Shown here: piece by piece, positions 8,637 to 49,558 of the stretch | Layout of the letters: every line of letters starts with the position of its first letter | Numbering within the stretch: the first letter of the stretch is position 1 | Virus record (IMG/VR): IMGVR_UViG_3300031957_002677 | Span: 25,836 to 89,835 of that record | Length of the DNA: 64,000 nucleotides | Direction: 5' to 3' (one strand) | Origin: a virus | The notes under the pieces: generated by a model | What the model saw: the letters and a program-made list of their open reading frames with translations, nothing else | Databases searched by the model: none | Told to the model about the DNA's origin: nothing | Program-made: the position numbers and the translations under genes

Positions 8637-9283
8637 TAGTTTTTTCTTCCTGTGTAAATTTTTAGGTCTTCTTCATATTCAAAATAATCTTCAAGTTCAC
8701 TATCATCGCAAAAATAGTTTCCCCAACCAGTTGCAATATATTTACTCTTTGAATATACAGGATTTCCACGATGAGTATGAGTGTAAAATGCGGGCCAAAT
8801 TAACATCGTCCCTGCTTTTGGTTGTACTCTAAGACCTTGCCAAAGAAACTCACTTTCACCCTCACCTTCAGGAATGTCATTCAAATATAACATCCAAGCA
8901 ACACATCTATCAACAGCACCCAAATCAGTAATCTCACAGTGCCAGTCATGAAATCCACCTCTAGGTGGAGTTTTTTGAAGTTTTACCTCATCAAAGTTTA
9001 TAGAAACATAATTAGAAACCCAAAAGATTTTTTGATACTTTTCCCAGCAATACTCTACTGTTTTAATAATAAGATCAAATGCTGGACTATGATCCAGATA
9101 CCACTGATAATCATGCCTAGTTAGATGACCCATTACAGTGCCATCTATTCCCTTCCCAGTTCTAAGATTGTTGCTTGGATCATCTGGATCCTTATAATTG
9201 GAATCAAATAGTGATACTAAAGAATCACAAACATCAATATCCATTACATTTTCATAAAGACCAATAAAATCATTATGTTTCAT
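8636..9283 (-). CDS. 2OG-Fe(II) oxygenase
   Basis: FHDWHCE, AWMLYLND, WPAFYTHTHRGNP, KYIATGW. Confidence 0.88.
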   Translation of the reverse strand: MKHNDFIGLYENVMDIDVCDSLVSLFDSNYKDPDDPSNNLRTGKGIDGTVMGHLTRHDYQWYLDHSPAFDLIIKTVEYCWEKYQKIFWVSNYVSINFDEVKLQKTPPRGGFHDWHCEITDLGAVDRCVAWMLYLNDIPEGEGESEFLWQGLRVQPKAGTMLIWPAFYTHTHRGNPVYSKSKYIATGWGNYFCDDSELEDYFEYEEDLKIYTGRKN

Positions 9284-10677
9284 ACGACCCAAGTAATGAT
9301 AGAAAATCTTGTTCCAGATTTAACTGGCATAATTTCATGTGGGTACATAAAATTAGATGGGAACATGATCACATCACCAGCATCCAGTTTATATACCAGT
9401 TCACGATTGAATAGTGCAACTTCTCCACCTTCATAAGCATTATTCATTGACACAATCACTGTCAATGCTCTAGGTTGTTCTTTGAATGAATCTGTATGTT
9501 CAATATAAAAGTCACCCTCTTCATATTTGAGCAGTTCATAACCACTATCCTCCTGGATTTCTAGTTCAAACTCTGGATGTGCTTCTTGATAAAGTCCGAT
9601 TAAGTTTTGAACAACCTCAAACATTTGATCATCTAATTGCTTCCTAACCTCAGAATTTTCTTCAGCAATGATTGATTGTTCAGAGATACAAATTTGTTCA
9701 CATCTTCTTGCTTCTGGATCGTGACCACTTCCAGTTAATGTTGCTTCCCAATAGTTTGTATTTGCATACTCATCTAGGATTTTATCGCATAGTTCAGGAT
9801 CAACAACTTCTTCACCATACCATACAAAGTCGGCAAGAGATTTAGATGATAATTTGCCAGATGGTTTTGATTTCTCTTCTACTTTAGGTTCGTTAATCAA
9901 CTCTGGAGTATCCTTCTTTGTCAAGAACTTTTCATATTTGCTATTAACAATGACTACATCATCAAAGTCAATATAATCAGTATCATTTACAGGATCTTGC
10001 ACAATTTCAACTGTTGAAGAGTCTTCATTTTGTTGCTGTTGCTGTCTATACTTCCGAGGAAGAATTGTCATGTCACTTACATTAGAAAAGTTTCTCATTT
10101 GTTCATACTCCTGTAATAGTTCTTCAGTGTTAATATCTCTAAATTTATTTTTATCAAAGTATGCAGGACTACACATACCACGACTTCTTACATAATGCAA
10201 GAAAAATTGAGTGTACTCTTCACCCTCAAATTCATCTCTCCAATGTGGAGCAATACACCCCAAGTATAGCATAGCATCACCAGGATTCAAGTTAACTGAT
10301 CTATTCTTTCCTTCTGGTGTTTCAATCCAAATTGCCCAAGGTTTATCACTACCAAGGTGCAATGTCATTGAAATTTCACATCCAGGACGATCAGTATGTC
10401 TATGGAGAATACTTCCGTTTCGATATATTCTAGAATAAACGTAAGTGGGAAGAACGGTTTCACCAATTAGTTTAGAAACTTCTGGAGTTTTATTTGCCAG
10501 AAGTTCTAATGCTGGAAGATAATCATATACTGCTGATGATTTTGGTGCCTGTTCATCACCATTGAAATCAAAGATTTCATCAGTAACAAAAAACTCTTTC
10601 TCTAATTGTGCTGCATGTTGTGGATCAATAAAATTTGGAACAACAATATAGTTGTTCTTCAATAATTCAATATTCAT
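9280..10677 (-). CDS. tandem two-domain 2OG-Fe(II) oxygenase
   Basis: Domain 1: RHTDRP, PHWRD, FLHYV; domain 2: EHTDS, GGE, FPSNFMYPHEI, GTRFSI. Confidence 0.88.
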   Translation of the reverse strand: MNIELLKNNYIVVPNFIDPQHAAQLEKEFFVTDEIFDFNGDEQAPKSSAVYDYLPALELLANKTPEVSKLIGETVLPTYVYSRIYRNGSILHRHTDRPGCEISMTLHLGSDKPWAIWIETPEGKNRSVNLNPGDAMLYLGCIAPHWRDEFEGEEYTQFFLHYVRSRGMCSPAYFDKNKFRDINTEELLQEYEQMRNFSNVSDMTILPRKYRQQQQQNEDSSTVEIVQDPVNDTDYIDFDDVVIVNSKYEKFLTKKDTPELINEPKVEEKSKPSGKLSSKSLADFVWYGEEVVDPELCDKILDEYANTNYWEATLTGSGHDPEARRCEQICISEQSIIAEENSEVRKQLDDQMFEVVQNLIGLYQEAHPEFELEIQEDSGYELLKYEEGDFYIEHTDSFKEQPRALTVIVSMNNAYEGGEVALFNRELVYKLDAGDVIMFPSNFMYPHEIMPVKSGTRFSIITWVV

Positions 10678-10686
10678 TTCATTCTA

Positions 10687-12021
10687 TCAACTATTCTTAT
10701 CTAGTACGTCTTTAAGAGCAGCAAACCACTTGACTGCTTTTTCTGCTGGGAATGAATTATCATCTCTCTCATTATCAGTTAGTGTAGTATAAAGTTGCTC
10801 TGGATCAATACCATCCATAAGTGTTAGGATTTCATCAATAGATTTGTCTTCACCACTTTCAATTTCCTGACGTTCAATGTTAGTCCTAATAAGTTTTTCT
10901 TGCTCAGCAGCATAACCACTACTATAAGATGATTCAAGTTTTTGTTTCTGAACTTTTTTATACTCAACTTCTGCTTTTTCAAATTCACGTTCTACAGCAT
11001 CATCAAGTTCGTCATATGCTTCTTCTTGAGACATTTTATTGAGAAGATCTTCATGTGCCCTCATAATAATATCTAGTTCTTGTTCCTTCTGAATCTCAAA
11101 TTGAGTTCTTTCTCTCTCCAGTTCTCTCTGAATCCTCTCCCTATTCAAGTTAATTTGATCTTGAACTTCTCTATTCTCTAATTCAATAATCTCTAGAACT
11201 TGTTTCTGCGATTCAATTTCTATCTTAGAAATATCGAGTTGTTCTTCCTCAAGCAACCTTACTTTTGCTATCATTTCTTCTCTCATTGCTCTTTCTTTAT
11301 CTTCGAGAGCAAGATTTTTCTCAGAGTCATCAATTTCACGTTCTATCTTGTCACGTTCCATTTGAAGCAGTTCTTGATACTGCTTTCGTTCTTCCACAAA
11401 GTGTTCCTTTTCTTTCTCAAAATCATGATAAAGTTCATCATATTTTTTAGAAAGTTCTAGAGACTTTTTCTCGAAGAACTCATCTGCTTTTTGTGCTTCT
11501 AACCCTGCTTTTTCGGACTCACGTGCTGCTTTTTCACGTTCAAGTTGAATATTAGCATTTTGTTTTTCATATTCTAATGCTTGCTCTTTCTTAGACTTTT
11601 CATCGTAAAGATTCTCTCTCTCATCACGAAGTTCTTTGTTCTGCCTCTGAAGATCTTCAATAATAACAAGTTGTGCTTCTTTCTCCAGTTTATCTAGATT
11701 TAATTCCTCGATCTGAGCAGCAAGATTTTCCTCTTCTTTTAGTGCAGATTCAAGTTCTTTTTTCTCATATACATCCAAAAATGTATTGAAATAATCTAAG
11801 TATGGTTGAATAATAGTATTAAATTCATCTTCACCAAAAACTTTATTGGGTGCAGGATCTTCACCAGGAGTATCTTCATACTCTAGTTCACCTCTACCAT
11901 CTCTCCATTGAATAGCATGAATAGTCTCGTCATCAAAATCCCAAGGTGCATCATCCTCAAGATCTACAGTACGACCATCTACGATAATTTTTTTATCTTC
12001 TGGAATAATAGAAATTCTCAT
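10687..12021 (-). CDS. fibre-assembly-like N-terminal domain fused to a long acidic coiled coil
   Basis: N-terminal ~85 aa (IIPED..IIVDG...IHAIQW..G.GELEY) resemble small proteins found next to cyanophage fibre genes; followed by ~350 aa of E-rich helical sequence. Confidence 0.6.
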   Translation of the reverse strand: MRISIIPEDKKIIVDGRTVDLEDDAPWDFDDETIHAIQWRDGRGELEYEDTPGEDPAPNKVFGEDEFNTIIQPYLDYFNTFLDVYEKKELESALKEEENLAAQIEELNLDKLEKEAQLVIIEDLQRQNKELRDERENLYDEKSKKEQALEYEKQNANIQLEREKAARESEKAGLEAQKADEFFEKKSLELSKKYDELYHDFEKEKEHFVEERKQYQELLQMERDKIEREIDDSEKNLALEDKERAMREEMIAKVRLLEEEQLDISKIEIESQKQVLEIIELENREVQDQINLNRERIQRELERERTQFEIQKEQELDIIMRAHEDLLNKMSQEEAYDELDDAVEREFEKAEVEYKKVQKQKLESSYSSGYAAEQEKLIRTNIERQEIESGEDKSIDEILTLMDGIDPEQLYTTLTDNERDDNSFPAEKAVKWFAALKDVLDKNS

Positions 12022-12398
12022 TGTTGATCCTCTTCAGATTTTGGTAGTAAGTTACTTTCTTCAGTATTATCTAGTTGTTCGATGTATTCGGAAACATTGA
12101 CACCCTGATCTTCACACATATCAAGATACATATTACCAACAGCATCTAGCATATTCTGATTGGTTTCATGTGCTTTCACCATTTCATTTCTAAATGACTC
12201 AACAGCAGAACTGGTAGATCTTTGTTGCTGACTGTTTTCAATCATAAGCATTGGCATCCATTGAATTGCACACGACCAATGATCTACTTGCTGACCAGTA
12301 TTAGGATCTTGCCCAGCAATATGTGTGTACCATGCACACTTATGTTCGACACAATCCTTTTTAATAAGAGGACACCACTTGCCAGATGCTTTAGTCAT
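12018..12398 (-). CDS. Cys-rich fibre-associated protein
   Basis: WCPLIKKDCVEHKCAWY...WSCAI (4 Cys, putative metal site), AVESFRNEMV helix, acidic tail. Confidence 0.65.
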   Translation of the reverse strand: MTKASGKWCPLIKKDCVEHKCAWYTHIAGQDPNTGQQVDHWSCAIQWMPMLMIENSQQQRSTSSAVESFRNEMVKAHETNQNMLDAVGNMYLDMCEDQGVNVSEYIEQLDNTEESNLLPKSEEDQQ

Positions 12399-12417
12399 AA
12401 GATGAAATTCAGTGTAT

Positions 12418-12450
12418 TATTTATTATAGCACGATCAATCCAAAGTGCAA
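12418..12450 (-). promoter_or_regulatory. overlapping sigma70-type and T4 late-type promoters
   Basis: TTGCAC-N16-TATAAT with extended TG (TGCTATAAT), immediately followed by ATAAATA (12418-12424). Confidence 0.55.
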
Positions 12451-13697
12451 AGGATCACATCGATATATTGAACTCTCAATGGTGATAATGAAGCAACAAA
12501 ACTAACAGGACTTCCACTAAATGGATGACTATGTGGTTGACCACCACCAGTTGATGATGTTGCTGGACCTTGAGTATTGCTATTTCTAATAGTACCACCA
12601 GGAGTCAAAATTCTCTGTGTTACCCTCACACTTGTAGTTTGTGGATATCTTTGAGGTGTACGATATGCTCTTGGTTGCCTATAAGCTGCAGGATTTCTTT
12701 GAGGAACTGTAACTCTGAATGGAATATTCACTCGGAAAGAATTTCTCTGTCTGAATGAATATCTCACTCTGAATGATCTAGGTTGCCTCTGTCTAAATGA
12801 TCTCCTCTGCCTAACATTTCTAGGTTGTCTAGTATTACGAGGTTGACGGAAAGATCTTCTCTGCCTAGAAGATACAGGTCTCCTAAACTGCCTTCTCTGT
12901 CTCCACCAACTTACTCTAGGTTGTCTTCTATCTGCTCTTCTTGGGATTCTATCATTTCTCCTTCTCCTACCCCATCTTCTTCTAGGTGTTCTGTCATTAT
13001 TTCTGACACTTGCTCTCCAAGATTGACCAATAGGGTTTCTCCATCTTCCACCATCAACACGGAAACTGAACGGTCTTCGTGATCTTAAAGGAACACGAAA
13101 AGCAATAGGAACTCTGAAACTGATTGGTCTTCTAGAACGTGTAGGGTATCTAACTCTTTGGTTTCTTGGTTGTCTCTGTCTGAGTGGAACTCTTTGTCTT
13201 CGTGGTTGTCTATAGTTACGAGGTTGCCTTACATTAGTTGGTTGTCTAAAGTTGACAATAACACGGTTATTGATCTGGACTCTTCTTGCCGCTCTAATAT
13301 TATATCCACGTGGTTGCCTATTACTGGTTCTAAATGGTGAAGAACCAGCAGATGATCTATATGAGTTTGGATTACTTCCCGTATTATGTGTATGTGCTGG
13401 TAATTGTTGAGTGGTAAGTGTAGTACCACCCGAAGAACCTGCAATGGTCGAACTACAATTTGCATCTGCACCTGCATCAGCAAATACTGCACTAAAATCA
13501 AGTGCTCCAGATGATAATCCACCAGTACCATCTACAACTCTAAGTGATTGATCATTTGCCTGTGTTTCTTTGGACCATCCAGTTGGTGCTGATGCTTGAT
13601 AAAACACCATTGTAGAGGATTGTGGAATGATCCCATAAAATGTTGATAATTGAGTACCATTGCCAAATTCGATCCCATCTGCTCTTAAAATAGACAT
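12435..13697 (-). CDS. HxH fibre-tip-like protein with ~240-aa Arg-rich hexapeptide-repeat insertion
   Basis: N- and C-termini align with paralog 13708..14244 (FYQASAPxGW, TTLTTQQxPxHTH, PATSxTGGGxxHxHPF, LRVxYIDVI); insert lies between the two HxH motifs. Confidence 0.75.
   Translation of the reverse strand: MSILRADGIEFGNGTQLSTFYGIIPQSSTMVFYQASAPTGWSKETQANDQSLRVVDGTGGLSSGALDFSAVFADAGADANCSSTIAGSSGGTTLTTQQLPAHTHNTGSNPNSYRSSAGSSPFRTSNRQPRGYNIRAARRVQINNRVIVNFRQPTNVRQPRNYRQPRRQRVPLRQRQPRNQRVRYPTRSRRPISFRVPIAFRVPLRSRRPFSFRVDGGRWRNPIGQSWRASVRNNDRTPRRRWGRRRRNDRIPRRADRRQPRVSWWRQRRQFRRPVSSRQRRSFRQPRNTRQPRNVRQRRSFRQRQPRSFRVRYSFRQRNSFRVNIPFRVTVPQRNPAAYRQPRAYRTPQRYPQTTSVRVTQRILTPGGTIRNSNTQGPATSSTGGGQPHSHPFSGSPVSFVASLSPLRVQYIDVILCTLD
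12570..13360 (-). repeat. coding 6-aa (18-nt) period Arg-initiated repeats
   Basis: RQPRNY/RQPRRQ/RVPLRQ/RQPRNQ...RQRRSF/RQPRNT/RQPRNV/RQRRSF/RVRYSF/RQRNSF/RVNIPF/RQPRAY. Confidence 0.85.
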
Positions 13698-14244: not shown

Positions 14245-14278
14245 ATTATACCAATTACTAACAACAGATAACGTGTAT

Positions 14279-14285
14279 TATTTAT
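14279..14285 (-). promoter_or_regulatory. T4-type late promoter
   Basis: ATAAATA 35 nt upstream of the fibre-tip gene pair. Confidence 0.55.
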
Positions 14286-43919: not shown

Positions 43920-46900
43920 TTACGAATAGAATTTACTTCCAGATGAACTTGCCATTTGTTGCTCATCACGATTACCAGTAGCAATTATATATGGTTGATT
44001 TAGTATAATTGTTTTACTACCTTCCTGTTCATAACTTGCTTGATCTCGTAAAGCAGTATCCCTATTTAGTTGCTCAGGTCTCATAATAGTAGAAGATGGA
44101 CCTACTGATGACAAGCTACTTCTTGCTCCAGCAAAAACATCAGTAAATCCAGAAGTTCCTCTTAGATCTGAAAAATCTATGCCTGCTAAAGGTGATTTTT
44201 CTAACTGCTTTGATGTATCCGTTGTTGTTATTTTTTCTTCTTTTCGTTTCGCATCTTGGGCATCCAAAGCAGCATTCTGTTCTTGTAAAGAAGCTGCTCT
44301 TTTTCCAGGAAGACCTGCACCTTTCTTAGTCCTTCCTTTTTCATTTATAATTTGATCGGATACCAACTTTGGATAATTTCTTTCAAGGTATGTTCTAATT
44401 TTTACTATACCTTTTATTTGTCCATTTTTGTCTTTAAATTCCTTAGCACCAGGATATAAGAATAACTTGTCATAAGGTGTTCCTCCAAACATTGTCCCTC
44501 TAACATAATTTCCAACTCCTGTCATATTATATGCTTCTCCACTACCTGCAGGAGTGGTATTGAGCCACTTTTCTAATCCAGATGCATTTGGAATGTTTCT
44601 ATTACCTGCTCCTGCAGGTGCCGTTGCTTCTGGACCTTCAGCATCACTATTTCCTCTTTTACTTTCTTCTTCCTTAAAGTTTTTAAAATGTTTCTTGATC
44701 ATGTCACGGGCAACACTACCTCCAGTACCCATTTTTGCACCTTCGGTAACATTCAATAAGTCCCATCTTGCTACAGATCCACCCCACATGCTTGGACCAT
44801 AGTTATCTGGACTTCCATCTCCATTCTTGTCTAGGTGGCCACTCAATCCTCTTGGATCTTTACCAGAACCTGCCTCAGCATGAGTCCAAACATTTTTATC
44901 AATATCACCTTCACTCCATCCCCATTTGATTGCAAGTCTTGCTGCTTCTGCAGTCATTGCATTTAATTGTTCATGAGTGACTGGGTATGATCCAAATCTA
45001 TCCCAATCCACACCTTCTCCACCCATAGCAGCAAGTGATAGTCCTATTGAATCATAGTTCTTTCCTTCAGTGTGTTTTCCAGTAACATCATAGTCCTTAT
45101 TTCTATGAATACTACCATCACCAGCAAAAATAGAATGGTATCCATAACTTGCACTAGTATCATTATAAGTTCCACCAGTCCAATGCAGATAAATTTGTGT
45201 GGACTTACCTCTTGTTTTACCTGGACTAAAGTTTGGATCACCAAATGGCACTTTGGTAATTGATCCATTTCCAGAAGGAATTGAACGTTTACCACCACCT
45301 GATGTTACAGTCGGTTTCGATCCACCACTCCTACTTTCGTCACCCTCAGAATCACTATTTCCTCTCCCATCATTATTTTGAGTTTTAACATAAGTTGTTG
45401 AACCTTCACCCATTTTATCTGATTCTGAGAAGAATGCTTTTCTTAAAACATCAAACTTTTTAAGTAGATTCATCTCTAAAGGATTTAATAGAGTAGCCCA
45501 ACCACCAAGTCTTATCTTACCAAGGTTTGAAAAAGGAACCCATGATAAATCAAGTTCTGGTCCATCTTGCTTTTGGATATTGGTAATACCTTTCAGCATC
45601 CACTCAGAAAATAATTTAGCACCATCTACAATTTTTAAAATATCTTTTTTCAGTCTATTACCAACCGCAGATGCACCACCACCACGTATTAGTTCATACA
45701 TCAGATCACCGACATATTCACCAGCAAGTGTTCCAATGAGTGTTCCTAAGAATGGAATTGGGATAAATGATCCAAGGAAACCACCAAGTGCAGAACCACC
45801 TACCTTGAACAATGCTCTATCAAGTTTACCATCTTCCATATAGGAAGCAATACCAACCATAAGTGGACCTATAATTGGTAATCTACCTAGAGGTCCAGAA
45901 CCAATTCTGGCAAATTTACTTGCAAGTCTTGCTCCTGTTCTATTCAAACCAAGTCTTGCACCACGACCCATAATTCTGGTCTGAAGACGACTTCCAGATC
46001 TTCCAAGTCCTCTTCTGAAAACACCACCCATTCTTCCAGATGCTGCTCTTCCTCCAGTACCTGATGAAAGACCAGGACCTGCAGGTTTAACTGTCGTCAT
46101 ACGACCCTTATTTTTTCTTATCAACCTTTCTACACTTGTCTTTGCTGATCGTGAAGCTTGAGTTGGAGTCTGACCAGATTTTATAGCATCATCATATGAA
46201 TTCTGAAATTGTCTAGCAGCATCATTGCCATACTTTCTCTCAAATAATTTTGCCTGCCGATTACGATTCATATACTCTGCAGTCTTATTATTTCCAGTAC
46301 CAAAACCTTTCTTTGATGTTGGTATTGGTTTTCCATTAGGTAATGTTTTAGGTTTTCCTCCAGGAGTCATACCTCCACCAGCAGAAATAGGAACACCTGA
46401 CATTGCCAAGATCATTGCAATGTTGATAAATTTATTAAAACTTCCTAAGAATTTGTTATATTCTTTTCCAGCATCCTCACCACCAACACCTTCAATCTCT
46501 TTTCCTATTGCATCAGTAATGTTATAAGCACCATCAACTAGAGATATAATTCCGTCTAGAACTTTTCCTCCTAGAGTTATAACAAATTCTGTAGCAGCAG
46601 CAAGACCTTTTACAATATTAAATACTGTCTCTCTATTCTCAAATAAAAATATTAATATCTTTCCAGCAATGATACTGAATATAAAGTTTTGGATGGCACC
46701 AATAATTCCACCACTGGGAAGAATTTTTGAAAGTGCTGGTCCACCAAGTCCAGCGCCAATTTTAGATTTACTTTCTAGTTTTGTCTCTTTAGACTGTCTT
46801 CGTTCTTTTTCAAATAATTTTTTCTTATTATTTACATCTTTCTTCTCTTCTTTTATTGACTTACCAAGTAACTTTCTAATCTCAAGAACTTCTTTATCAA

Positions 46901-47162
46901 TACGTTCGAGTGTTCCTGGACCAGACTTTGATGGTCCAGATACTGTTGTATTATTTCTTGCTGGAATAGTTGATGCTGGTATAAGTACAGACTTTGGTCT
47001 TATTACAACCCCACCACTTTTTCCCTGTTCTTGACCTTGGGTTGGACGTTTGATAAGTTGAGATTGTTTTTTATTTTTACCACCAAATGCTTTTTTTGCA
47101 GCACCTTTTGCTAGTTGACCACCAACTGCTCTTGTGATTGAACCTCCCAGTAGTCCAATCAT
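43920..47162 (-). CDS. tape-measure-like tail protein with N-acetylmuramoyl-L-alanine amidase domain
   Basis: Helical Gly/Ala-rich N-half; Amidase_2-like IYLHWTGG, YH, GKHT..N.DSIG, VWTHAE, RWD. Confidence 0.7.
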   Translation of the reverse strand: MIGLLGGSITRAVGGQLAKGAAKKAFGGKNKKQSQLIKRPTQGQEQGKSGGVVIRPKSVLIPASTIPARNNTTVSGPSKSGPGTLERIDKEVLEIRKLLGKSIKEEKKDVNNKKKLFEKERRQSKETKLESKSKIGAGLGGPALSKILPSGGIIGAIQNFIFSIIAGKILIFLFENRETVFNIVKGLAAATEFVITLGGKVLDGIISLVDGAYNITDAIGKEIEGVGGEDAGKEYNKFLGSFNKFINIAMILAMSGVPISAGGGMTPGGKPKTLPNGKPIPTSKKGFGTGNNKTAEYMNRNRQAKLFERKYGNDAARQFQNSYDDAIKSGQTPTQASRSAKTSVERLIRKNKGRMTTVKPAGPGLSSGTGGRAASGRMGGVFRRGLGRSGSRLQTRIMGRGARLGLNRTGARLASKFARIGSGPLGRLPIIGPLMVGIASYMEDGKLDRALFKVGGSALGGFLGSFIPIPFLGTLIGTLAGEYVGDLMYELIRGGGASAVGNRLKKDILKIVDGAKLFSEWMLKGITNIQKQDGPELDLSWVPFSNLGKIRLGGWATLLNPLEMNLLKKFDVLRKAFFSESDKMGEGSTTYVKTQNNDGRGNSDSEGDESRSGGSKPTVTSGGGKRSIPSGNGSITKVPFGDPNFSPGKTRGKSTQIYLHWTGGTYNDTSASYGYHSIFAGDGSIHRNKDYDVTGKHTEGKNYDSIGLSLAAMGGEGVDWDRFGSYPVTHEQLNAMTAEAARLAIKWGWSEGDIDKNVWTHAEAGSGKDPRGLSGHLDKNGDGSPDNYGPSMWGGSVARWDLLNVTEGAKMGTGGSVARDMIKKHFKNFKEEESKRGNSDAEGPEATAPAGAGNRNIPNASGLEKWLNTTPAGSGEAYNMTGVGNYVRGTMFGGTPYDKLFLYPGAKEFKDKNGQIKGIVKIRTYLERNYPKLVSDQIINEKGRTKKGAGLPGKRAASLQEQNAALDAQDAKRKEEKITTTDTSKQLEKSPLAGIDFSDLRGTSGFTDVFAGARSSLSSVGPSSTIMRPEQLNRDTALRDQASYEQEGSKTIILNQPYIIATGNRDEQQMASSSGSKFYS
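44121..44185. repeat. 65-bp direct repeat, copy 1 (copy 2 at 47498-47562)
   Basis: 62/65 identical; encodes GIDFSDLRGTS(G/A)F(T/S)DVFAGAR. Confidence 0.9.
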
Positions 47163-49558
47163 TCTCCATCACCCCCAAGAGTGTTTAGAAGAACGATTTC
47201 TCTCACATTTATCGACTCTTTGCATCCTGAAATTGTTGGAAATTCTGGATCATGTGGTGAGTTTGTGGGATTTGGAGATGGTGGTCCAAATGCCGATGTA
47301 ATTGGATCAAGATTTATAGTTTCAACTGAATTTAGAGGTTGAGGTTTTAATTGCTCGATTGGAGAAAGTTGCTCCAAAGGAAATGGGATGATTTGTTGTC
47401 TAGTATCTAAGATAGAAAGGTTATTATTATTATTTTGAATTGACGTACTTGATGAATTATTTGGGGTAAACGTTGGTTCTACTGTTCCTAAACTCTGTCT
47501 TGCTCCAGCAAAAACATCACTAAATGCAGAAGTTCCTCTTAGATCTGAAAAATCTATACCTGATATATTTAAATTAGTTCTGACACCCGATTCCTGATAA
47601 CTGGAGGCAGATTTACCAGTTACAGTATTTGAAACAGTTCCTTGAGATGTTGCTGATCTTGAATCCTTAGCATCTGCCCATCCAAATCCATCAAATATCA
47701 TAATTTTATTGCCAGATCCAGGCTTATTTTTCACAAGATCACCAGTTTTATATCCTCTAGTATTATCCTTTTCTTGATTATAATTTGGAATCTTATCGAG
47801 ATTAGGAAGAGAATAACCACCATAACTTCTCAGTCCATCAAAAGAGAGTGTATAGTTTGAAATCGTTTCATCTTTAATTGGACCCAATGGAGAATTATTC
47901 TTTGCCATATGGATAGTAAATCCACTACTTCCAGTTCCTAGATAATTTTTAGTAGCAACACTAAAATCTAGCATATGGTTATCGGAATGTCCTGCAACTC
48001 CAGGACCAACATCATTAACACGTACAACTGCCTTTTTGTCACCTTTGGTGACAACAACCTGGAATGGTTGTTTTAATGTTCTGCCTCCAGGGAAATTCTT
48101 TGCAGGAACTGTCATGTCTTTGGGAAGGAGTTTTAATAATGGTGGAAATGCTGCAGCAGAAAATACTTCAGGTCTATATCCTTCACCAGTAGAAGTAGCA
48201 GGTAGTCCATCAGCAGTTTTATATCCACTAGCATTTATTCCACCAAGTGATGGATCATAATAACTTGTCTTAGCATCAGACGCAATAACACTACCACCAC
48301 CTTGTGCATATGTGGTTCCACTCACTATTTTTGGTTTATTTGTACCACCACCAGCAGCATTGATAGATTCCATAAAATCACTACCAAACTTATCAACAGC
48401 ACCACGACTCATTACAAACTCACCTGGAGTGAGCATGGCAGGAACAGTGTCAGTTCCACGAGCCATACCACCACCAGAAAATCCTTCTCGTTCATTCAAA
48501 GAAGGTAGTAGACCTCTAGTAAATGTTTCCATAATACTACCAGGTTTTGATAGTTCATCTACTTGCTGCTTTGGAGTAGCATCAGTCAGACCTTTATCTT
48601 CTAGTTGCTGTTCAGTGCTATCCTTAGCCCTGAATGCTAAAGCACCAGCACCGATGGCAGTGGCAACCGCAGCAGCTGCAAGCGGATTCTTTGCTGCAAA
48701 TCTTATTAATGCAGGTATTGCTCTTCGTACTAAGAACGCAGTAAGTCTTGCCATTCCACTTACTACGGTTCTAATAAAATTACCCAATGGTGTAGCAAAC
48801 AATACAAATGCTGCAGTAAGTGCTGGCCACCAATCCTTCAAGAATCTACCAAGAGTATCAAGTTTTTTCTTATTCTTTGGATCTGACATCCAATCAATGA
48901 TCTTGATAAGAATTCTGCCCATAACCACATTCTTGATCCAATTAAATATTGCATCAAATATACTCAATTGAGGTAAAGCACCTTTTAATTTTTTAAGGAA
49001 ACCTTTTCCTTTCTTATCTTTTTCTAAAGAATCTTCTTTTGCTTTTCTTTTTTGCTTCTGAAGGTTCTTTCTTTCAATATCTCTGATACTCTTAGTTACA
49101 TTAAGTCTTTCCTTAATAAGACCTTTTATTGCAATAATATTCTTCAAGATACTTTCAAGAAGTCCTTGCGATTTATCTGCTTTTAATATATTTTGCTTCT
49201 GCTCAGTCTTAGATTCTTCTGCAGGTTCTTCTGCAGGTTTCTGATATGGAACAAGAGCAGAAGATGGACGTGCCTTTGCTCCAGATAATTTTGCTTTAGG
49301 TTTAAAAGAACTCTTGGATATTTTTGCTGTTTTTGCTCTGAACTTTGGATCTGCTGCTTTTCTTTTCTTTCTTACTGCTATAATTTCCTTTCTAAGAGCA
49401 GCACTACGTTCATCACCACTTCCTTTTGTCTGGAATTCAATAGTTGCTGCTGCCTCCATCAAGGCACTAAGATAATCTTCCTCACCAGAGAGGTTATCTA
49501 GGTCTACACCCATCTCTAAGAGTATTTCTAGTGGATCGGTAGTAGTCCTAGATGCCAT
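47159..49558 (-). CDS. tape-measure-like tail protein with RlpA-like (double-psi beta-barrel) lytic domain
   Basis: Coiled-coil N-half, GTDTVPAMLTPGEFVM, then TSYYDP...SAAA...VVRVNDVGP...LDFS. Confidence 0.7.
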   Translation of the reverse strand: MASRTTTDPLEILLEMGVDLDNLSGEEDYLSALMEAAATIEFQTKGSGDERSAALRKEIIAVRKKRKAADPKFRAKTAKISKSSFKPKAKLSGAKARPSSALVPYQKPAEEPAEESKTEQKQNILKADKSQGLLESILKNIIAIKGLIKERLNVTKSIRDIERKNLQKQKRKAKEDSLEKDKKGKGFLKKLKGALPQLSIFDAIFNWIKNVVMGRILIKIIDWMSDPKNKKKLDTLGRFLKDWWPALTAAFVLFATPLGNFIRTVVSGMARLTAFLVRRAIPALIRFAAKNPLAAAAVATAIGAGALAFRAKDSTEQQLEDKGLTDATPKQQVDELSKPGSIMETFTRGLLPSLNEREGFSGGGMARGTDTVPAMLTPGEFVMSRGAVDKFGSDFMESINAAGGGTNKPKIVSGTTYAQGGGSVIASDAKTSYYDPSLGGINASGYKTADGLPATSTGEGYRPEVFSAAAFPPLLKLLPKDMTVPAKNFPGGRTLKQPFQVVVTKGDKKAVVRVNDVGPGVAGHSDNHMLDFSVATKNYLGTGSSGFTIHMAKNNSPLGPIKDETISNYTLSFDGLRSYGGYSLPNLDKIPNYNQEKDNTRGYKTGDLVKNKPGSGNKIMIFDGFGWADAKDSRSATSQGTVSNTVTGKSASSYQESGVRTNLNISGIDFSDLRGTSAFSDVFAGARQSLGTVEPTFTPNNSSSTSIQNNNNNLSILDTRQQIIPFPLEQLSPIEQLKPQPLNSVETINLDPITSAFGPPSPNPTNSPHDPEFPTISGCKESINVREIVLLNTLGGDGE
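47498..47562. repeat. 65-bp direct repeat, copy 2
   Basis: Near-identical to 44121-44185. Confidence 0.9.

Follow-up and report, generated by a model that had tools for sequence, protein, structure and literature searches.

A length-constrained acidic rod protein whose charge tracks that of an arginine-rich fibre-tip insert in a marine phage gene cassette

Introduction

Tail-fibre tips decide phage host range, and to our knowledge the helper proteins of such tips are poorly known outside T4, lambda and P2. Here we analyse two adjacent genes in a stretch of 64,000 nucleotides (the window), which is part of an 89.8-kb viral record in IMG/VR. Positions 10687-12398 of the window are filled by these two minus-strand open reading frames (ORFs), which encode proteins of 126 and 444 amino acids (aa), designated g126 and g444 respectively. 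They lie downstream of a fibre-tip gene with a long Arg-rich insert, and g444 consists of a small N-terminal domain (N-domain) followed by a long acidic predicted helix, referred to below as the rod.

The T4 protein gp38 and the Tfa chaperones of lambda, Mu and P2 are likewise encoded just downstream of the fibre gene, and share with g444 this placement and a probable co-transcription with a trimeric fibre-tip gene. In T4 the genes for gp37 and gp38 are transcribed together, and gp37 requires gp38 in order to trimerise (PMC3004832). g444 has no sequence relation to gp38 or Tfa, and no match to Caudo_TAP (PF02413) or any other Pfam family at E<=0.01; the window cassette also differs in having two accessory genes, one of which encodes a long rod. 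T4 gp57A is a helical oligomerising helper, proposed to stop fibre monomers aggregating, which is absent from the particle (PMC3004832). It has 79 residues, none of them aromatic, Cys or Pro. The 444 residues of g444, in contrast, include a beta domain, and Trp, Phe, Tyr and Pro all occur in its end domains. T4 fibritin (gp wac) is a 53-nm coiled coil, both ends of which bind the long fibre, and it both aids assembly and forms part of the virion (PMC3004832). It resembles g444 in having an N-terminal anchor, a helical rod of ~50 nm and a small C-terminal domain. However, fibritin is a neck protein whose gene does not follow a tip gene, while g444 has no foldon, no sequence match to fibritin and weak canonical heptads. 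A profile of the g444 family searched against all PDB sequences gave one generic coiled-coil match (CCDC153, E 0.005), and no fibritin (1AA0).

The PF16778 (Phage_tail_APC) proteins CRP-361 gp41 and PSSM2_030 share with g444 the N-domain, the gene position and the translational coupling. g444 lacks the APC domain (~60 aa, DW..P....W..YRQ.LRD), and has instead a helix of ~290 aa, a linker and an unrelated C-terminal domain (C-domain). It is three times longer than these proteins and far more acidic.

Results

The tip cassette and its N-domain proteins

g126 and g444 belong to a widespread, unnamed gene cassette, in which one or more HxH tip genes are followed by genes for a Cys-rich protein, an N-domain protein and a 2OG oxygenase. 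With the Cys-rich family as anchor, at least 594 IMG/VR loci were found. The best 80 of these were examined, together with 75 more obtained via an alignment of the longest N-domain proteins, giving ~115 distinct loci. Nearly all of them have the tip, Cys-rich and N-domain genes side by side and in one orientation, and the order in the window agrees. The Roseobacter podophage CRP-361, which was reached through a weak tblastn match, has the same order in three consecutive genes. These encode a 914-aa fibre with a C-terminal HxH tip domain like that of the window tip genes (gp39), a clear g126 homologue (gp40), and an N-domain followed by PF16778, "Phage tail assembly chaperone" (gp41, E 3e-20). 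P-SSM2 carries an equivalent trio, PSSM2_028/029/030, followed by piuC (197 aa). A profile of the tip domain matches the Photorhabdus PVC tail fibre in the PDB (9qgo, E 4.5e-11) as well as 9nxk, and the HxH domain is thus a genuine fibre tip.

A phmmer search with residues 1-95 of g444 gave 78 representatives at E<=1e-3. The domain is N-terminal in all of these, and the proteins have either 60-250 or 420-491 aa. A hidden Markov model built from the N-domain matches recovers g444 and 115 distinct loci proteins. The N-domain is the constant module of the family, fused elsewhere to PF16778. A first-pass annotation, made from the window DNA alone, had suggested that this domain normally occurs as a short protein beside fibre genes, and it does indeed begin short proteins encoded directly after fibre genes in, for example, PSSM2_030, CRP-361 gp41 and ~70 metagenomic loci.

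Three classes of N-domain protein can be distinguished. Those of class (a) have ~90-165 aa, many with PF16778, carry a net charge of about -7 to -15, and stand beside fibres of 250-1050 aa. Class (b) proteins have 145-348 aa and a net charge of -24 to -69. They are composed of the N-domain, a short helix and a D/E-rich tail, and accompany two or three insert-less tip genes of 170-211 aa. Class (c) is the long-helix class (420-502 aa), and includes g444. No class (b) locus contains an ORF of net +20 or more within 5 kb; locus L079, for example, encodes a class (b) protein of 348 aa and net -69 beside tips of 184 and 187 aa with 3-5 Arg. The class (b) tails of L034, L041-L048, L051 and L071 have a near-identical C-terminus, YYDIEELLKEI, and another subgroup has LELLF.EDP..EIEELI. 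These may be short docking motifs for some partner.

The rod is paired with the Arg-rich insert, and their charges covary

The tip gene that precedes g126 in the window encodes a 420-aa paralogue containing 82 Arg, with a net charge of +69 overall and a 284-aa Lys-free Arg-rich insert between its HxH motifs. Every long-class protein with visible upstream DNA adjoins a tip of this type, with an insert of 275-381 aa and net +36 to +83. An insert-bearing tip beside a shorter N-domain protein was found in none of ~70 cases.

The net charge of the insert is strongly correlated with that of the partner (raw r=-0.88, n=32). Felsenstein independent contrasts on marker trees, which are short and midpoint-rooted, give r=-0.63 (27 contrasts, p=3e-4, signs 21:6), with much of the signal coming from a high-charge clade. 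The contrasts hold within each subgroup (r=-0.73 and -0.58). Four alternative trees give r between -0.63 and -0.72, and a Brownian-motion null places the raw r at p ~2e-4. On the partner side, the covariation is carried by the D+E count (r=+0.62) and not by K+R. It is seen in the helix (-0.63) and in the N-terminal part (-0.56), whereas the C-domain is without signal. With the neighbouring oxygenase as a control for composition, r is -0.31, which is not significant, and the partial r for the partner is then -0.66 (p 7e-4). The sum of tip and partner net charges lies between -12 and +22 (mean +3, standard deviation (sd) 9), while each alone varies with an sd of 13-15. It is concluded that rod charge tracks insert charge after phylogenetic correction.

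The length of the rod is constrained

The long class contains two groups. Group 2 consists of the proteins of 472-502 aa with an extra KYNLT-type C-extension (L022, L025, L026, L029, L120, L131, L138-L145 and P0018-P0044). The stretch from anchor to anchor (QPY.D to DP..LY) is exactly 346 aa in all 22 of the 22 distinct group-2 sequences, with zero indels, at ungapped identities down to 17% (median 24%, compared to 10% for shuffled sequences). The absence of any indel over 346 residues at such divergence implies a strict constraint on the length or register of this charged helix, and would fit a rod that matches a partner or spans a fixed distance. In group 1, which includes g444, the corresponding stretch has 319-334 residues. 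Insert and rod lengths rise jointly between the groups, inserts of 275-297 aa occurring with rods of 319-334 and inserts of 353-381 aa with rods of 346. In the long class, the rod is followed by a conserved C-terminal domain of ~40 aa.

Predicted structure of g444

g444 contains 41 D, 86 E, 42 K and 26 R. The total of 127 acidic against 68 basic residues (ratio 1.87, net -59) bears out the estimate of roughly two to one made by eye in the first-pass annotation, which had also correctly placed the gene two positions downstream of the poly-Arg protein. A ratio of ~2 is not unusual among the proteins of the window phage. However, the acidic charge density of g444 (-13.3 per 100 aa) is the highest of the 47 non-overlapping window ORFs of at least 120 aa (median -3.0, sd 5.2).

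The AlphaFold2 prediction for g444, made with 23 homologues, has beta strands between residues 2 and 62, a single uninterrupted helix from 72 to 363 with a predicted local distance difference test score (pLDDT) above 90 over ~120-330, a disordered segment at 364-395 (pLDDT 40-48), and small low-confidence helices at 396-443. The N-domain modelled alone, with 49 homologues, has a pLDDT of 94.9. The ~85-aa N-terminal domain and long helix described previously are thus reproduced, except that the helix has ~290 aa and not ~350. Residues 86-385 contain no Pro and 27% hydrophobic residues (LIVMFYW). This hydrophobic content, together with conserved hydrophobic stripes, does not fit an ER/K single alpha-helix, in which hydrophobic residues are very few and blocks of E alternate with blocks of K/R. 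In the averaged group-2 rod profile there is a significant hydrophobic period of 3.58, and the conserved hydrophobic residues are spaced 7/4/3. Such a narrow stripe could belong to a sparse coiled coil or to a face that packs against a partner. A pairwise hint of an internal duplication of the rod (score 81, against 54 +/- 6 for shuffles) was not confirmed by profile comparison of the halves.

The C-domain is conserved in the alignment of all long-class proteins. It was considered as a diverged PF16778 domain and rejected, since the hhalign probability is 0.1% and the C-terminal 85 aa have no Pfam match at E<=10. Searches of Pfam (at E<=0.01 for g444), PHROGs and NCBIfam gave nothing meaningful for either g444 or g126, and PDB sequence profiles gave no match to the Cys-rich family or to the N-domain. 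Fold comparisons of the N-domain were not convincing: the best Foldseek match in the PDB has E 0.42, and a wide VIA-align search gave a best Z of 3.7, with XRCC4/PAXX-like heads reaching only 2.6-3.4. Matches in BFVD were to uncharacterised phage proteins only.

The Cys-rich protein g126

g126 has five Cys, of which four (C9, C16, C21 and C43) are invariant in the family alignment, as is an AVESFRNE motif. Residues 91-126 have a net charge of -10, in agreement with the acidic tail noted previously for this protein. An ESM Atlas search with g126 gave only viral clusters labelled "hypothetical protein". In a few phages, among them S-B05 (L014) and Ralstonia phage PY059YO380 (L015), the Cys-rich gene stands beside HxH-tip fibres without an N-domain gene, which suggests that, of the two, the Cys-rich protein is the more universal tip partner. 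The Ralstonia phage has a different protein, of 128 aa, between the tip and Cys genes.

Organization of the locus

The window phage is a T4-like marine cyanophage near Synechococcus phage S-SCSM1 (Kyanoviridae), whose protein SSCSM1_247 is 69% identical to g444 and whose record (MK867354.2) shows the same gene order. All genes of the cassette stretch are on the minus strand (Table 1). In order of transcription, four 2OG-Fe(II) oxygenase-like genes are followed by the 178-aa and 420-aa tip genes, g126, g444, the two-domain oxygenase gene and two more oxygenase genes. The g126 stop and the g444 start overlap in a 4-nt ATGA, which is preceded by GAGGA, and the two genes are evidently translationally coupled. 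ATAAATAATAC occurs as an exact copy only twice in the window. Both positions are kept in nearly all loci of the window clade, although L019 has no copy before its Cys gene. The copies look like T4-type late promoters, which would divide the cassette into two units, namely the tip pair and the g126-g444 pair.

Two plus-strand Phe/Leu-rich ORFs inside g444 (11200-11460 and 11265-11450) were rejected as genes, being antisense by-products of its GAA/AAG-rich coding sequence. The window has only two other strongly basic ORFs, both on the minus strand: 43920-47162 (1080 aa, net +51) and 47159-49558 (799 aa, net +21).

Table 1. Positions of the features discussed. Coordinates are those of the window, except in the last row, where each is preceded by its locus.
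Feature	Position	Strand	Basis
g444, N-domain protein with long acidic helix, 444 aa, net -59	10687-12021	minus	ORF, composition, SSCSM1_247 identity, AlphaFold2
N-domain, residues 1-70, small beta domain with IHAIQW motif, family-defining module	11812-12021	minus	homologues, pLDDT
Continuous predicted alpha-helix, residues 72-363, ~43 nm if straight, E-rich	10933-11808	minus	AlphaFold2; length constancy across relatives
Probably disordered linker, residues 364-395, low confidence	10837-10932	minus	pLDDT 40-48
g444 C-terminal domain, motif DP..LY..LT....FP.EKAV.WF.ALK	10690-10836	minus	alignment of long-class proteins
g126, Cys-rich cassette protein, 126 aa	12018-12398	minus	family alignment
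g126 acidic tail, residues 91-126	12021-12128	minus	composition
ATAAATAATAC, T4-late-promoter-like motif, 15 nt upstream of g126 start	12414-12424	minus	exact copy; conserved in window clade
Arg-rich fibre-tip paralogue, 420 aa, proposed binding partner of g444	12435-13697	minus	ORF, composition
Insert-less fibre-tip paralogue, 178 aa	13708-14244	minus	tip profile matches PDB 9qgo
ATAAATAATAC, second exact copy, upstream of 178-aa tip gene	14275-14285	minus	exact copy; conserved in relatives
Two-domain 2OG-Fe(II) oxygenase, 465 aa, directly after g444	9280-10677	minus	C-terminal PF13640
Class (b) oxygenases	L032:6170-7381, L054:4490-5644, L041:2951-4099, L079:3501-4667, L034:5797-6996		

Discussion

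g126 and g444 are the two conserved accessory genes of the tip cassette, and we consider it on balance probable that the rod is a dedicated assembly scaffold or chaperone for the Arg-rich tip. By analogy with the gp38/Tfa genes, which follow their fibre genes, and with gp57A, the role of g444 is most likely in assembly (PMC3004832). g444 would then be a fibre-specific accessory protein or chaperone of a known kind, whose unusual features are a length-invariant rod and a co-evolving charge. In the mechanism that we propose, the rod would lie along the Arg-rich arm or arms in about a one-to-one ratio, giving a complex that is roughly charge-neutral at 1:1. The docking site of the N-domain would be either the conserved collar region of the tip or the Cys-rich protein, and the C-domain would dock at, or cap, the far end of the arm. 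The rod would neutralise the arm during folding and trimerisation, after which it would either leave or remain in the virion. A more specific and more tentative proposal is that rod and insert form a polyelectrolyte pair, in which a length-fixed "scabbard" or ruler, docked at its two ends, lies in residue register along a poly-arginine needle. This ruler would be needed for the construction, and perhaps for the unsheathing on host contact, of a highly cationic receptor-binding or membrane-active tip. If true, fibres would be assembled and controlled in a new way, and co-evolution would maintain the match in charge.

Several observations weigh against an insert-specific chaperone. Presence or absence of the long class requires only ~3 state changes on the tree of Cys-rich and N-domain proteins, so that the perfect pairing may reflect very few events and no presence/absence statistic is possible. 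Among sister pairs near the tips of the tree, agreement in sign is only about 9 to 5, and the covariation comes mainly from deeper splits. The lengths of rod and insert are not proportional, an insert of 284 aa occurring with a rod of 331 and inserts of ~360 with a rod of 346. The heptad contrast of g444 is modest, being a weak signal in this single sequence (z=2.4 versus shuffles, with no 3.5 peak), and the coiled coil assumed in the first-pass annotation is therefore an interpretation of the predicted helix. In the GenBank record of S-SCSM1, the short tip SSCSM1_244 and protein 236 are flagged as virion proteins, while the Arg-rich paralogue 245, the Cys-rich protein 246 and the rod protein 247 are not. 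The Arg-rich tip is thus itself unflagged, which makes any proteomics argument concerning 247 a weak one; trypsin-based proteomics may miss SSCSM1_245.

Acidity is a further difficulty. Two 100%-complete records (246.5 and 238.9 kb) contain only insert-less tips, and yet their N-domain proteins have net charges of -54 and -57. Strongly acidic N-domain proteins thus exist without a basic partner, and acidity alone is no evidence of neutralisation. Together with class (b), these genomes indicate that acidity is a family trait independent of the insert. The first-pass annotation had argued that the acidic extension co-evolved with the basic insert. The charge covariation and the strict pairing of the long helix agree with this, but acidity as a response to the insert does not stand, since strongly acidic versions of 145-348 aa, with net charges of -24 to -69, occur beside insert-less tips, including those of the two complete genomes. 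This is an outcome that the first-pass annotation had itself named as refuting its reading. Family acidity is older and wider than the insert, and therefore only the rod and the tuning of its charge are insert-specific.

The same data can be read in other ways. The rod could be a permanent structural partner, which stays on the Arg-rich needle in the virion as part of a charge-neutral two-protein tip, or stands as a separate fibritin-like whisker, anchored through both end domains. The strict length invariance of a rod of ~43-51 nm, the conserved modules at both of its ends and the near-zero summed charge at 1:1 are all in favour, and T4 fibritin provides a precedent for an assembly aid that is also a virion part (PMC3004832). 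We nevertheless think this rather unlikely, given that no foldon or fibritin match was found and that the short members of the family carry a chaperone-annotated domain; the missing flag on SSCSM1_247, in a record that flags other proteins, points weakly in the same direction. It is still less probable that g444 is a generic helper of the tip cassette, with rod and insert merely co-inherited in a few lineages and the charge correlation a product of shared compositional drift. The small number of state changes between long and short classes and the family-wide acidity speak for this reading, as does the greater acidity that the neighbouring oxygenases, too, show in the high-charge clade. Against this, the contrasts persist after the oxygenase control (r ~-0.66), in both subgroups and on four trees, and no long-class protein was seen without an insert-bearing tip.

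The remaining alternative, raised in the first-pass annotation, is that g444 makes the basic insert available to the flanking 2OG-Fe(II) oxygenases, which would then modify it; this we regard as very improbable. Oxygenase genes do flank the cassette, and the nearest, encoding the two-domain enzyme, starts 9 nt past the g444 stop. However, in the insert-less class (b) loci also, the gene next after the N-domain gene encodes an oxygenase, of 382-403 aa and with PF13640 at its C-terminus. A long oxygenase has this place in the long class too, and in P-SSM2 the position is taken by the shorter piuC. The linkage is therefore cassette-wide, predates the insert and is independent of it. The long oxygenase may be a fourth member of the cassette, and is a candidate tip-modifying enzyme.

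The analysis defines a very common marine-phage cassette, both helper families of which are without Pfam, PHROG or structural assignment. The case is open to test in an isolated phage, S-SCSM1 on Synechococcus WH7803. If rod and insert do bind, the partner would be a practical requirement for expressing such fibres, and the pair would offer a clean example, from nature, of an extreme polycation that is chaperoned or sheathed electrostatically.

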